DNA from: Escherichia phage ECML-183-2
Strand: one strand, 5' to 3'
Length of the DNA stretch: 64,000 nucleotides
Sequence record: OL631481.1
Positions 42,785-44,372 of the stretch are shown piece by piece. Positions within the stretch are counted from its first letter, which is position 1; every line of letters begins with the position of its first letter. The position numbers and the translations under genes were made by a program. A model generated the notes under the pieces. It did not search any database and was not told the origin of the DNA. It saw nothing but the letters and a program-made list of their open reading frames with translations.

Positions 42785-42814
42785 ACTATACTACATTTTA
42801 CTATCGAATGTCAA
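42785..42814 (-). promoter_or_regulatory. sigma70-like promoter (AACTATTGACA-N18-TATAGT) inside tRNA cluster
   Basis: Minus-strand -35 at 42809-42814, -10 at 42785-42790; tRNA-Gly 5' end at 42771. Confidence 0.45.
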
Positions 42815-43089
42815 TAGTTATTTAATAGGTGGGACAGTGACGAGTATCCCTTTGGGTGACTAGCCCTACGTTCGGTAAGCTAACTTAAAATAATACAAAA
42901 CCAAAGTCAAATATTATTCTTCGTTGCTGTCGATGGGAGAGCCGCTTCTTCTTTTGCCCCATCCAACCCTACTCCGGTCAAGTTTCAGGTAACTCTTTGT
43001 GTGATCAACACAATACTAAGAACACTGTCTTTCGAACAGACCTTGTGCACAGGATACGACGATCAATCACAGTGCCCTTAATGTTGTGT

Positions 43090-43164
43090 TGGTGCTCCCA
43101 CTCTGAATCGAACAGAGATCCACGGATTACAAAACCGTTGTAATAGCCATTATACTATAGGAGC
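43090..43164 (-). tRNA. tRNA-Thr (anticodon TGT)
   Basis: Anticodon loop TTTGTAA; acceptor GCTCCTA/TGGGAGC; T-arm CTCTG-TTCGATT-CAGAG; encoded CCA. Confidence 0.6.
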
Positions 43165-43170
43165 AAAGCT

Positions 43171-43248
43171 GGGACTCGGCAGGATTCGATACCTGCAATT
43201 CCAGAAGCCTCTTGGCGACTGGGGGGTTTACCTTAACTCTACAAGTCC
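43171..43248 (-). tRNA. tRNA-like element, degenerate (8-nt T-loop, no canonical anticodon arm, no encoded CCA)
   Basis: Acceptor GGACTTG/CGAGTCC and T-arm GCAGG-TATCGAAT-CCTGC present; exhaustive scan of the body found no 5-bp stem with 7-nt loop. Confidence 0.3.
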
Positions 43249-43255
43249 ATAATTC

Positions 43256-43341
43256 TGGCGATGAGTATAGGATTTGAACCTATATCGTTCTTTCGAACAC
43301 GGATTAACAGTCCGCCGCTTAAACCATTCAGCCAACTCATC
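43256..43341 (-). tRNA. tRNA-Asn (anticodon GTT) with expanded 15-nt variable region
   Basis: Anticodon arm GCGGA-CTGTTAA-TCCGT as recalled for E. coli tRNA-Asn; extra hairpin GTTC-GAAA-GAAC in variable region; encoded CCA. Confidence 0.5.
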
Positions 43342-43347
43342 TTAATT

Positions 43348-43435
43348 TGGTGGTGAGTGATGGAGTCGAACCACCCGAATCGCAATGATAACAGATTTAC
43401 AGTCTGCCCCGCTACCCCTACGGAATTAACTCACC
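43348..43435 (-). tRNA. tRNA-Tyr (anticodon GTA), long variable arm
   Basis: Anticodon arm GCAGA-CTGTAAA-TCTGT; acceptor GGTGAGT/ACTCACC; 88 nt; encoded CCA. Confidence 0.65.
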
Positions 43436-43565
43436 TAAATGCTAATATTTAAATTCTTTTTAAAATAGCCAGTGTTCACACCACTAACTATGAGGTATCG
43501 GTAAAGTGGTTACCGCCACTTGCCGAAGATTTACTCTGCTAAAGTAAGCTATATTAAAAAGAACT

Positions 43566-43651
43566 TGGCGGTAGATGTAGGACTCGAACCTACACGCCGT
43601 TTCCGACTACAGTTTAGCAAACTGTCGTGGCTACCATTTCACCAATCTACC
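43566..43651 (-). tRNA. tRNA-Ser (anticodon GCT), long variable arm
   Basis: Anticodon arm ACAGT-TTGCTAA-ACTGT; variable hairpin GTCG-GAAA-CGGC; encoded CCA. Confidence 0.6.
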
Positions 43652-43655
43652 AATC

Positions 43656-43746
43656 TGGCGGAAGGAGGGAGAGTCGAACTCCCAAGGCTCTTTCAAGCTC
43701 GGCGGTTTTCAAGACCGTTTTCGTCGCCACGTCGATTTGCCCTTCC
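43656..43746 (-). tRNA. tRNA-Ser (anticodon TGA), long variable arm
   Basis: Anticodon loop CTTGAAA with ACGGT/ACCGC stem; acceptor GGAAGGG/TCCTTCC; 91 nt; encoded CCA. Confidence 0.55.
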
Positions 43747-43754
43747 ATACTTAT

Positions 43755-43784
43755 AATCTAACATAAAATAATGTTAGTTGTCAA
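43755..43784 (-). promoter_or_regulatory. sigma70-like promoter (AACTATTGACA-N18-TAGATT) inside tRNA cluster
   Basis: Minus-strand -35 at 43779-43784, -10 at 43755-43760; tRNA-Ser 5' end at 43746. Confidence 0.4.
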
Positions 43785-43980
43785 TAGTTTTTTAAAACAT
43801 TTTACCATGAATGGTGACTCCACCAACCCCCGTTCTCAGCGAACGGTGCTCTTCGAGCATTTATGTCTTCTAATATAACCGTGGCCTTTGTTTATAATGT
43901 CTGACATACTTACCTCATTCTCTGCCACCATGATCAGTAGTGGGTTCAAATCACTTGAGCTAATTCATGTTAAAATGTTC

Positions 43981-44055
43981 TGGTGTCTTTACAAGGAATC
44001 GAACCTTGACTAAGAGTTTAGAAGACTCCTGTGCTATCCATTACACCATAAAGAC
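43981..44055 (-). tRNA. tRNA-Arg (anticodon TCT)
   Basis: Anticodon arm GGAGT-CTTCTAA-ACTCT; T-arm CAAGG-TTCGATT-CCTTG; encoded CCA. Confidence 0.65.
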
Positions 44056-44057
44056 GT

Positions 44058-44132
44058 TGGTGGCCCTGGCTGGTTTCGATCCAGCTACCTATCGGTTATG
44101 AGCCGACAGCTCTCCCATTGAGCTACAGGGCC
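44058..44132 (-). tRNA. tRNA with CAT anticodon, Ile2 (lysidine)-like or elongator Met
   Basis: Anticodon loop CTCATAA; acceptor GGCCCTG/CAGGGCC and T-arm GCTGG/CCAGC resemble E. coli tRNA-Ile2 from memory; encoded CCA. Confidence 0.6.
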
Positions 44133-44342
44133 ATAAATGTGGTAACAGAGACGCTGACGATTGTAGAGAACCGCTACATTCTCTAAGACCAAGCCCAACT
44201 TTCAGCGTAAAAGTTCTTGAGCCGAGACTATTCCTTTTCCTCTTTGGTAGCTAACCTCTGAAGAAGTAGTCTCTAACACTATCCGCAGTGCAAGCCTCTC
44301 TTAACAAAAGTCAACGACCCTGTTACCACACTTGATGAACGT

Positions 44343-44372
44343 ATCCTAACATATGAAGGATACGTTTGTCAA
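44343..44372 (-). promoter_or_regulatory. sigma70-like promoter (AACTATTGACA-N18-TAGGAT) at head of tRNA cluster
   Basis: Minus-strand -35 at 44367-44372, -10 at 44343-44348; flanked by GTATCCT...AGGATAC inverted repeat. Confidence 0.4.

Follow-up and report, generated by a model that had tools for sequence, protein, structure and literature searches.

Which polymerase reads the repeated TTGACA sites within the tRNA cluster of this phage, and does a phage-specific upstream motif set them apart? The 64,000-nt stretch analyzed here (the window) is from a Phapecoctavirus (phAPEC8-like coliphage, about 150 kb). A preliminary description had reported three minus-strand sites with AACTA before TTGACA, an 18-bp spacer, and TAGGAT, TAGATT, or TATAGT as the -10 hexamer, and all of its coordinates for them proved correct; the -10 family TAGNAT that it had assigned does not accommodate the TATAGT of the third site. 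The three sites are:

44343..44372, minus strand: P1; TTGACA (44372-44367), 18-bp spacer, TGtTAGGAT (-10 hexamer 44348-44343)
43755..43784, minus strand: P2; TTGACA (43784-43779), 18-bp spacer, TGtTAGATT (-10 hexamer 43760-43755)
42785..42814, minus strand: P3; TTGACA (42814-42809), 18-bp spacer, TATAGT (42790-42785), without TGn

Sequence elements of P1, P2, and P3

All three sites are noncoding, lie upstream of the genes transcribed, and share their orientation; tRNA 5' ends directly adjoin P2 and P3. Each -35 hexamer matches TTGACA at 6/6 positions, the spacer is 18 bp throughout, and every -10 hexamer has T at -12, A at -11, and T at -7. TG at -15/-14 is present in P1, P2, and a fourth promoter, P4 (see below), and missing from P3, which is a plain -35/-10 promoter because TGn is absent and its -10 is better; that -10 can be read as either TATAGT (18-bp spacer) or TAGTAT (15-bp spacer). 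The 18-bp spacer and the G or A at -10 positions 3–4 are each sub-optimal. From these elements, transcription is predicted to start at about A44336 for P1, A43748 for P2 (2 nt ahead of tRNA-Ser (TGA)), and A42778 for P3 (7 nt ahead of tRNA-Gly).

The T4-type late promoter element TATAAATA, located at -10 and with no -35 requirement, is absent from P1–P3, which have a consensus -35 instead. The MotA box (TGCTTtA) of T4-type middle promoters was likewise not found at -30 in P1–P3, where TTGACA fills the -35 position.

P1–P3 belong to a larger promoter set

The pattern TTGACW-N14/15-TGnTAnnnT has 11 matches in the 64-kb window versus 0.35 expected, a count reached by 0/100 shuffles, and all 11 are co-oriented with the local genes. 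Eight are intergenic; because the other three are intragenic, the pattern lacks complete specificity. Of these three, two were examined, and each is conserved in KKE7M, a conservation that coding constraint confounds. The genome of phage tuntematon (98% identical) contains 79 promoter-pattern matches versus 16.9 ± 4.7 expected, and in its noncoding DNA, which makes up 10% of the genome, 39 sites are co-oriented versus 1 anti-oriented. The shorter sequence CTATTGACA has 6 copies in the window (0.82 expected; 0/100 shuffles reach 6); those at 18675-18667 and 30676-30668 lie within coding sequences, lack a -10 element, and seem to be due to chance.

Outside P1–P3, the set includes the following sites:

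41960..41988, minus strand: P4, past the terminator; TTGACT, 17-bp spacer, TGtTAAGAT; orthologues found
41523..41552, minus strand: promoter upstream of small lysis-region genes, past a terminator; TTGCAA, 18-bp spacer, TGaTAAGAT
38536..38564, minus strand: portal promoter; TTGACA, 17-bp spacer, TATTAT
36844..36872, minus strand: head-operon promoter; CTA-TTGACA, 17-bp spacer, TAGACT
26397..26426, minus strand: promoter upstream of the Dit-like tail gene, past a terminator; TTGACA, 18-bp spacer, TGtTACAAT
1549..1578, plus strand: promoter downstream of the nucleotidyltransferase gene; TTGACA, 18-bp spacer, TGaTAGGAT
60049..60076, plus strand: promoter downstream of the thymidylate synthase gene; TTGACT, 16-bp spacer, TATAAT
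44901..44929, minus strand: promoter upstream of an 83-aa ORF; TTGACT, 17-bp spacer, TGcTAAACT
45388..45417, minus strand: promoter in a divergent intergenic region; TTGACT, 18-bp spacer, TGcTACCCT

Five of these had been described as TTGACA with a -10 starting TA at 17–18 bp. This agrees with the sequence at the head-operon, portal, Dit-like, and 1549–1578 sites; the site at 60049–60076 exists, but with TTGACT and a 16-bp spacer. The structural genes concerned were also named appropriately:

36901-38466: portal gene (Portal_Mu)
36328-36807: XkdF-type prohead protease, first gene of the head operon, followed by scaffold, decoration, and major capsid genes
25636-26337: Dit-like tail protein

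Promoters ahead of the portal gene, the head-protease operon, and the Dit-like tail gene are conserved in position in Justusliebigvirus. The proposal that such promoters drive structural genes, in which late timing is assumed, fits these three genes but not P1–P3, which precede tRNAs and structured noncoding RNAs.

The A-tract, not the AACTA prefix, is shared

Each of P1, P2, and P3 is preceded by AAAWAACTA, and the exact 11-mer AACTATTGACA has three copies in 64 kb, solely at these sites. P1–P3 have AAATAA or AAAAAA at -44 to -39, and the A-tract of P1 (AATAA, 44380-44376) shares bases with the stop codon (TAA) of the ORF before it. Across the promoter set, the common feature is an A-tract from -45 to -39 (A frequency 0.6–0.74 versus 0.30 background), where host promoters have the proximal subsite of the UP element (PMC2613000).

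In Justusliebigvirus and in a lineage of 80% identity, the orthologous sites retain the -35, TGn, and -10 elements, but their spacers differ, one of them in length. P1 reads TTGACA, 17-bp spacer, TGtTAAGAT in phiWec179 and TTGACA, 18-bp spacer, TGcTAAGAT in KKE7M; the P2 -10 is TGtTAGATT in the window, phiWec179, and KKE7M, with different spacers; and P3 orthologues have TATAGT or TGtTAGAGT. When ncRNA-b (see below) and P2 together were compared with Justusliebigvirus, a 57-bp P2 segment was the sole conserved part. Beyond the tRNA cluster, the KKE7M orthologue of 41523..41552 has TTGCTT, a 17-bp spacer, and TGaTATGAT.

Host polymerase versus other readings

P1–P3 are very probably host Eσ70 promoters that need no phage factor. 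Sequence elements, statistical excess, orientation, position, and conservation in spacer-diverged orthologues were observed directly, and from them we infer that Eσ70 is used, where exactly transcription starts, how strong the promoters are, when they act, and how the transcripts are processed. Each promoter would combine four known elements, namely the TTGACA -35, the 18-bp spacer, a weak TAnnnT -10, and the A-tract at about -45 to -39, which would contact the α C-terminal domain; the weak -10 would be backed up by the TGn extended -10 in P1 and P2 and by the better hexamer TATAGT in P3. The earlier view of these sites as host-σ70-like is supported by element match, excess over chance, and positional conservation in Justusliebigvirus.

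The accompanying claim of a phage-specific upstream motif fared differently. If AACTA or CTA beside the -35 were read by a phage-encoded or phage-modified factor, tRNA and late structural expression would be coupled, and the three exact 11-mer copies do far exceed chance. CTA also occurs at the head-operon promoter, and AAAACTA is found in KKE7M P1 and P2, displaced by one base. However, CTA occupies -38 to -36 in just 4 of the 39 noncoding co-oriented promoters of the tuntematon genome; among late-gene promoters only that of the protease has it, the portal, Dit-like, and P4 promoters lacking it. In P1–P3 orthologues it is replaced by gta, gtg, tag, tac, or ctc, and phiWec179, with gta or gtg, keeps every σ70 element. 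The -35 is already a full match to the host consensus. A candidate factor might be seen in the neighboring 98-aa ORF (41642-41938), which one GenBank record (OM362897, SKA64) labels RpoS, "RNA polymerase sigma factor"; the ORF has no Pfam match, including to any sigma domain, and its PHROG family is of unknown function, so that neither database supports the label. We regard such a phage-specific promoter class as very unlikely. The AACTA prefix is, at the sequence level, a lineage-specific detail of 3 among ~40 genome-wide promoters and not a separate recognition element; the truly shared feature is the A-tract.

The same identity could instead mark an operator, with the shared 15–17 nt binding a repressor or activator over the UP element and -35, so that the three tRNA units would be co-regulated rather than constitutive. 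The identity does exceed the hexamer, extending to TTAAATAACTATTGACA in P1 and P3 and TTAAAAAACTATTGACA in P2, within this lineage only; yet dyad symmetry is absent, neither Justusliebigvirus nor the 80%-identity lineage conserves the extended identity, and most of it is accounted for by the A-tract and the consensus -35, making an operator highly improbable. Least credible, indeed extremely improbable, is that the sites are relics of tRNA-module duplication or gene conversion whose likeness to promoters is incidental. Duplication does expand tRNA clusters, and three copies lie within 1.6 kb; but the likeness among P1–P3 ends at the -35, their spacers being unrelated, the -35, TGn, and -10 are kept across genera despite diverged flanks, and the orientation and intergenic biases are strong. 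We found no transcript mapping, transcription-start, or expression data for Phapecoctavirus, Stephanstirmvirinae, or Vequintavirinae in the literature searched on transcription and promoters; an RNA-seq paper that was retrieved concerns a T5-like phage.

Proposed transcription units of the tRNA cluster

As host promoters, P1–P3 together with P4 would divide the tRNA cluster into units that each start transcription independently, composed of these features:

44133..44336, minus strand: ncRNA-a, 204-nt structured RNA, filling the stretch between the predicted P1 start and the 5' end of tRNA(CAT)
44132-44058, minus strand: tRNA-Met/Ile2 (CAT), matching the ASO2A annotation
44055-43981, minus strand: tRNA-Arg (TCT), matching the ASO2A annotation
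43790..43980, minus strand: ncRNA-b, ~190-nt structured RNA between tRNA-Arg and P2
43090..43746, minus strand: transcription unit 2 (tRNA calls and annotation), comprising the next seven entries
43746-43660, minus strand: tRNA-Ser (TGA)
43651-43566, minus strand: tRNA-Ser (GCT)
43565-43436, minus strand: structured 130-nt spacer between tRNA-Ser (GCT) and tRNA-Tyr
43435-43351, minus strand: tRNA-Tyr
43341-43256, minus strand: tRNA-Asn
between tRNA-Asn and tRNA-Thr, minus strand: degenerate tRNA-like stretch
43164-43090, minus strand: tRNA-Thr
42146..42771, minus strand: transcription unit 3, tRNA-Gly, Gln, Pro, Ile, then tRNA-Met
42299-42231, minus strand: near-threshold tRNA-like stretch between tRNA-Ile and tRNA-Met of unit 3
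42012..42030, minus strand: terminator-like hairpin at the end of the tRNA cluster, from sequence

The P1 unit would carry ncRNA-a, tRNA(CAT), tRNA-Arg, and ncRNA-b; the P2 unit the two tRNA-Ser, Tyr, Asn, and Thr; and the P3 unit Gly, Gln, Pro, Ile, and Met, followed by the terminator. Downstream of P4 lie the 98-aa ORF, the lysis genes, and the terminase genes, which would form its unit. Leaders would be very short (~2 nt for P2 and ~7 nt for P3), and the mature RNAs would be freed by tRNA-processing enzymes. The spacer at 43089-42820 (270 nt) has no significant overall structure (z = -1.0). Among the other genes of the phage are those for an RNA ligase and for a nucleotidyltransferase whose annotation reads tRNA nucleotidyltransferase.

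Structured RNAs between the promoters

The fold of ncRNA-a (MFE -78 kcal/mol, z = -6.3) is closed by a helix of 16 + 6 bp whose ends lie ~3–4 nt past the predicted P1 +1 and ~4 nt short of the tRNA; eight pairs are compensatory between two lineages, and the RNA occurs in Phapecoctavirus only. ncRNA-b is kept in Phapecoctavirus and Seunavirus: 97.4% of the cells of its alignment are paired, with both sides changed in 14 pairs, and covariation across two phage subfamilies, Stephanstirmvirinae and Vequintavirinae, supports it. Its 7-bp acceptor-like stem, UAGCUCA motif, and mini hairpin beside the 3' strand raise the possibility of a tRNA origin. A hammerhead-like reading of its conserved loop CUGAUCAU was rejected, the core G being absent and Rfam giving no match.

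Rfam 15 covariance models gave no match at E <= 10 within 44336-44133 (ncRNA-a) or 43980-43790 (ncRNA-b), and nothing except tRNAs at the gathering score in the whole window or at E <= 10 in the cluster. With nhmmer, profiles of the two RNAs had no match in Justusliebigvirus (tRNA cluster and late region searched) or in Certrevirus (tRNA cluster searched). Motif scans for ncRNA-b in viral, metagenome, and genome collections returned only near-identical Phapecoctavirus and Seunavirus copies plus chance matches, and no bacterial genome.

We tentatively suggest, as a possibility a little short of an even chance, that the units bounded by these promoters amount to more than tRNA operons, with P1 serving mainly ncRNA-a, ncRNA-b representing a new family, and both being excised as stable RNAs. 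RNase P and 3'-processing enzymes would release ncRNA-a and ncRNA-b, which would then accumulate as stable phage RNAs. If so, they might, for example, act as decoys, or else as cofactors, where tRNA cleavage and repair are contested, and it is these structured RNAs that could open new biology.

The value of the promoter finding is mainly practical. The promoters are unmarked in all three annotated records of the genus examined, and the ASO2A record, which reports nine promoters genome-wide, leaves the 44 kb examined around the tRNA cluster without any; they define how transcription is laid out in the tRNA cluster and in the modules for head and tail. This phage group probably uses host polymerase in unmodified form, also ahead of morphogenesis genes.

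Comparison with known systems

The T4 tRNA cluster contains two structured non-tRNA stable RNAs, species 1 and species 2 (rnaD/rnaC). Like them, ncRNA-a and ncRNA-b are interspersed with tRNA genes in shared units, from which tRNA processing would release them; the RNAs described here are longer (about 190–205 nt).

With E. coli rRNA and tRNA promoters of the rrnB P1 type, P1–P3 share A-tracts upstream of the -35 that would drive stable-RNA genes. They differ in the 18-bp spacer and TGn element and in the stretch that leads from the -10 to the start, which is AT-rich (ataagta, aaatata) with no GC-rich discriminator; on general grounds, control by DksA or the stringent response would therefore not be expected.

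T4 early promoters consist of UP, -35, TGn, and -10 elements, and spacers of >=18 bp are commoner in TGn promoters (PMC2613000). They resemble the sites described here in their A/T-rich UP element, near-consensus -35, TGn, and -10, in their use of unmodified host Eσ70, which we infer for the present sites, and in their dense spacing within a lytic myovirus genome. Unlike the TATAAT-like -10 of T4, that found here is TAGGAT, TAGATT, or TAAGAT, with a conserved 18-bp spacer.

In the related phage rV5 (Vequintavirinae), consensus σ70 promoters were predicted over early and late regions, including one, "PtRNA", ahead of the tRNA cluster (Kropinski et al. 2013, PMC3606486, Table S4). These have TTGACA, 15–18 bp, and TAnnnT, with an extended -10 in 11 of 33, and the late-region sites resemble TGGTAAAAT (PMC3606486). 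A single tRNA promoter is tabulated for rV5, whereas here three lie within the cluster in addition to P4; the likeness is one of kind. Because the T4 early architecture has been described and the rV5 paper predicted promoters of the same kind, PtRNA among them, the kind of promoter represented by P1–P3 was already known.

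Genomic setting

Region 41500-45500 of the window shares 98% identity with numerous Phapecoctavirus genomes (phAPEC8, ESCO13, ASO2A, tuntematon), a group placed in Stephanstirmvirinae with genomes of about 150 kb. Plus-strand genes at 284-2883 are followed by a minus-strand block, between 2941 and about 45111, of tail-fibre, tail, head, portal, large-terminase and lysis genes and then the tRNA cluster; plus-strand DNA-metabolism genes extend from 45591 onward. Pfam upheld the gene labels of the preliminary description. The features discussed here, all on the minus strand, are listed below.

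Promoters, predicted transcription units and genes
P1: TTGACA 44372-44367, 18-bp spacer, TAGGAT 44348-44343; TG at -15/-14
P1 unit (predicted): ncRNA-a 44336-44133, tRNA(CAT), tRNA-Arg, ncRNA-b 43980-43790
P2: TTGACA 43784-43779, 18-bp spacer, TAGATT 43760-43755; TG at -15/-14
P2 unit (predicted): tRNA-Ser (TGA), Ser (GCT), Tyr, Asn, Thr
P3: TTGACA 42814-42809, 18-bp spacer, TATAGT 42790-42785; no TG at -15/-14
P3 unit (predicted): tRNA-Gly, Gln, Pro, Ile, Met, terminator 42030-42012
P4: 41988-41960, upstream of the 98-aa ORF, lysis genes and terminase
41642-41938: 98-aa ORF; SKA64 counterpart at L009 443-739
41552-41523: late-region site, TTGCAA, 18-bp spacer, TGaTAAGAT
36901-38466: portal, Mu-type (Pfam)
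36328-36807: prohead protease, XkdF-type, first gene of the head operon (Pfam)
25636-26337: Dit-like tail protein (Pfam)

The 98-aa ORF is annotated in SKA64 (GenBank OM362897) as "RNA polymerase sigma factor RpoS"; given the lack of any Pfam domain and a PHROG family without assigned function, this annotation is probably wrong. Between a 160-aa gene and a 662-aa gene, the apparent gap at 28453-28738 (-) resembles coding sequence and is probably a frameshift extension of the tail assembly chaperone preceding the tape-measure gene. Plus-strand genes at 948-1541 and 48746-50231 encode a nucleotidyltransferase (annotated in tuntematon as tRNA nucleotidyltransferase/poly(A) polymerase), a metallophosphatase and RNA ligase 1, which together look like a tRNA-repair toolkit; a promoter at 1549 (TTGACA, 18-bp spacer, TGaTAGGAT) directly follows the nucleotidyltransferase gene.

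Host-type promoters are over-represented and conserved

P1, P2 and P3 were found exactly where the preliminary description had placed them. Its five further sites were also present at their positions, but the one at 60049-60076 reads TTGACT, 16-bp spacer, TATAAT. The pattern TTGACW-N14/15-TGnTAnnnT occurs 11 times in the window against 0.35 expected, a count reached by none of 100 shuffles; all 11 matches are co-oriented with local genes and eight are intergenic. We also assembled the tuntematon genome (150,473 bp; about 98% identical to the window across the tRNA-cluster region), in which TTGAC[AT], 16-18 bp, TAnnnT gave 79 matches against 16.9 +/- 4.7 expected from first-order Markov simulations. 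Non-coding DNA, only 10% of that genome, held 39 co-oriented matches and one anti-oriented match.

Orthologous positions were compared in phiWec179 and PsgM04F, which form a Phapecoctavirus lineage at 80% identity, and in KKE7M and JLBYU50 of the genus Justusliebigvirus. P1 (TTGACA, 18-bp spacer, TGtTAGGAT) corresponds to TTGACA, 17-bp spacer, TGtTAAGAT in phiWec179 and to TTGACA, 18-bp spacer, TGcTAAGAT in KKE7M. P2 reads TTGACA, 18-bp spacer, TGtTAGATT in the window, phiWec179 and KKE7M alike, although the sequences of the spacers are unrelated. P3, which lacks the TG, carries the best -10 hexamer of the three, TATAGT; in KKE7M it reads TGtTAGAGT. When ncRNA-b plus P2 was the query, Justusliebigvirus genomes kept just the 57-bp promoter. 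KKE7M further keeps in position the late-region promoters that precede the Dit-like, protease and portal genes and the 98-aa ORF, together with the site at 41552-41523. Fixed hexamers with drifting spacers are the pattern expected under promoter function.

The proposal that these promoters share a phage-specific upstream motif did not hold. AAAWAACTA precedes P1, P2 and P3, and the exact 11-mer AACTATTGACA has three copies in 64 kb, at P1-P3 only; CTATTGACA occurs six times in the window against 0.82 expected, although two of the six copies, intragenic and with no -10 element, look accidental. Genome-wide, however, the CTA/AACTA prefix is found at only 4 of the 39 non-coding co-oriented tuntematon promoters, and orthologues replace it with gta, gtg, tag, tac or ctc. 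The common upstream feature is instead an A-tract at -45 to -39, lying 4-10 nt ahead of the -35, where A reaches a frequency of 0.6-0.74 in the genome-wide promoter set (background 0.30). The same position is occupied by the proximal UP subsite, to which the alpha C-terminal domain binds, and spacers of at least 18 bp are commoner among promoters with a TGn extended -10 (PMC2613000).

Other promoter-like sequences were observed. Intragenic sites at 20907-20936 (-) and 13482-13510 (-) in tail-fibre-region genes (TTGACT, 17/18-bp spacer, TGnTAnnnT) are kept, hexamers and all, in KKE7M, a conservation confounded by coding constraint; they may be internal promoters for a 23-kb tail operon otherwise without promoters. 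The divergent intergenic region 45150-45360, between the minus- and plus-strand gene blocks, contains long AT-only tracts and clusters of GTAC-containing repeats (gtacggagtacagtacttgagtacagagtact), and its role could be regulatory or origin-like; just past this region lies a plus-strand TTGCTT, 16-bp spacer, TATAGT (about 45445-45472). The unusual -10 hexamer TACCCT defines a mini-family of three promoters (window 45388-45417 (-); tuntematon 26351 (+) and 141233 (+)), two of which share the spacer TTGACTttttcaaaaaatatgS. Outside the window, tuntematon carries about 15-18 near-stereotyped early promoters (6300-17200 (-) and 39267 (+)) with an A-tract, TTGACA, mostly a 16-bp spacer and -10 hexamers that include TAAGAT, TAAACT and TAATAT; most copies are followed by a conserved 5' leader hairpin (TAGGGCGG, loop, CCGCC), which shows covariation among copies. 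This is a separate class from the 17/18-bp-spacer, TGn promoters of the tRNA/late region.

P1 to P3 precede tRNAs and structured RNAs

Start sites were inferred by counting the customary 7 nt from the -10 hexamer, which places the P2 start about 2 nt before tRNA-Ser (TGA) and the P3 start about 7 nt before tRNA-Gly. Host-type promoters do precede morphogenesis genes (Dit-like, protease, portal), as had been proposed, but P1-P3 are not drivers of structural genes: downstream of them lie tRNAs and structured RNAs. P4 would restart transcription, which would then run through the 98-aa ORF and the lysis and terminase genes.

ARAGORN misses two of the tRNAs, both annotated in the ASO2A record: tRNA-Tyr (43351-43435 (-)), found by Rfam at gathering score, and tRNA-Ser (TGA) (43660-43746 (-)), for which the Rfam hit within the tRNA clan was weak (37 bits to the tRNA-Sec model, whose gathering score is 47 bits). 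A stretch at 42231-42299 (-) is tRNA-like near threshold (28.8 bits; cut-off, 29 bits), and a degenerate tRNA-like sequence was seen by eye between tRNA-Asn and tRNA-Thr (about 43172-43250 (-)).

The end-closed, 204-nt ncRNA-a (44133-44336 (-)) exactly spans the interval from the predicted P1 start to tRNA(CAT). Its fold (MFE -78 kcal/mol, z = -6.3) is closed by a long helix, of 16 + 6 bp in the consensus structure, and between two Phapecoctavirus lineages 8 of 66 pairs are altered on both sides yet paired. It was detected in Phapecoctavirus only; in Justusliebigvirus an 88-aa ORF occupies its slot.

The second RNA, ncRNA-b (43790-43980 (-), about 190 nt, z = -4.1), recurs at about 71% identity in Seunavirus phages (GAP31, 4MG, PVP-SE1-like), where it directly adjoins tRNA-Leu; copies lie at 394-589 of the GAP31 stretch (L013) and in comparison stretches L014, L015, L016 and L019. 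In a nine-sequence alignment, 97.4% of cells were paired, against 87% when shuffled (0/500) and about 42% with slid partners. Covariation is strong, 14 pairs having changed on both sides against 2-4 in slid controls. Unpaired motifs (UAGCUCA, CUGAUCAU, GAGAAUGAG, ACAAAGGCCACG) and a hairpin (GGUGGAGUCACC) are conserved, and the layout is faintly tRNA-like. Neither RNA matched an Rfam family, and no copy turned up in bacterial genomes; that they are tRNA-derived or decoy RNAs is speculation.

Other structured stretches include a 130-nt spacer at 43436-43565 (-) (11-bp closing stem, z = -3.7) and a strong 80-nt hairpin at 43010-43089 (-), the 5' end of a 270-nt spacer before P3 that is not significantly structured as a whole. 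Just upstream of ncRNA-b, Seunavirus genomes carry a tRNA-like RNA (GAP31, L013 about 284-393; same region in L014 and L015) with acceptor stem GCAGGGU/ACCCUGC, a T-arm, CCA and an insertion of about 40 nt.

Comparison with known systems

P1 to P3 are unmarked in the three annotated Phapecoctavirus records examined, the ASO2A record reports only nine promoters genome-wide, and our literature search found no transcript mapping for this group of phages. The preliminary observation is confirmed and its interpretation partly right: the promoters are sigma70-like and host-type, whereas the motif and the targets of P1-P3 were misjudged. The promoters themselves are ordinary, and the more interesting lead is the structured RNAs that they flank.

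UP, -35, TGn and -10 occur together in many early promoters of T4 (PMC2613000), elements also found in the tRNA-cluster family. Taken together with the position of the A-tract and the long spacers typical of TGn promoters, this indicates that every feature of the family is host-type. In rV5, 33 consensus sigma-70 promoters were predicted genome-wide, 11 with an extended -10, and the authors held that such promoters argue against T4-style polymerase reprogramming (Kropinski et al., PMC3606486). Among the promoters that they list are PtRNA and, in the late region, sites of the type TGGTAAAAT (PMC3606486). Because these predictions include promoters of the same kind, those of the tRNA cluster belong to an already-known type.
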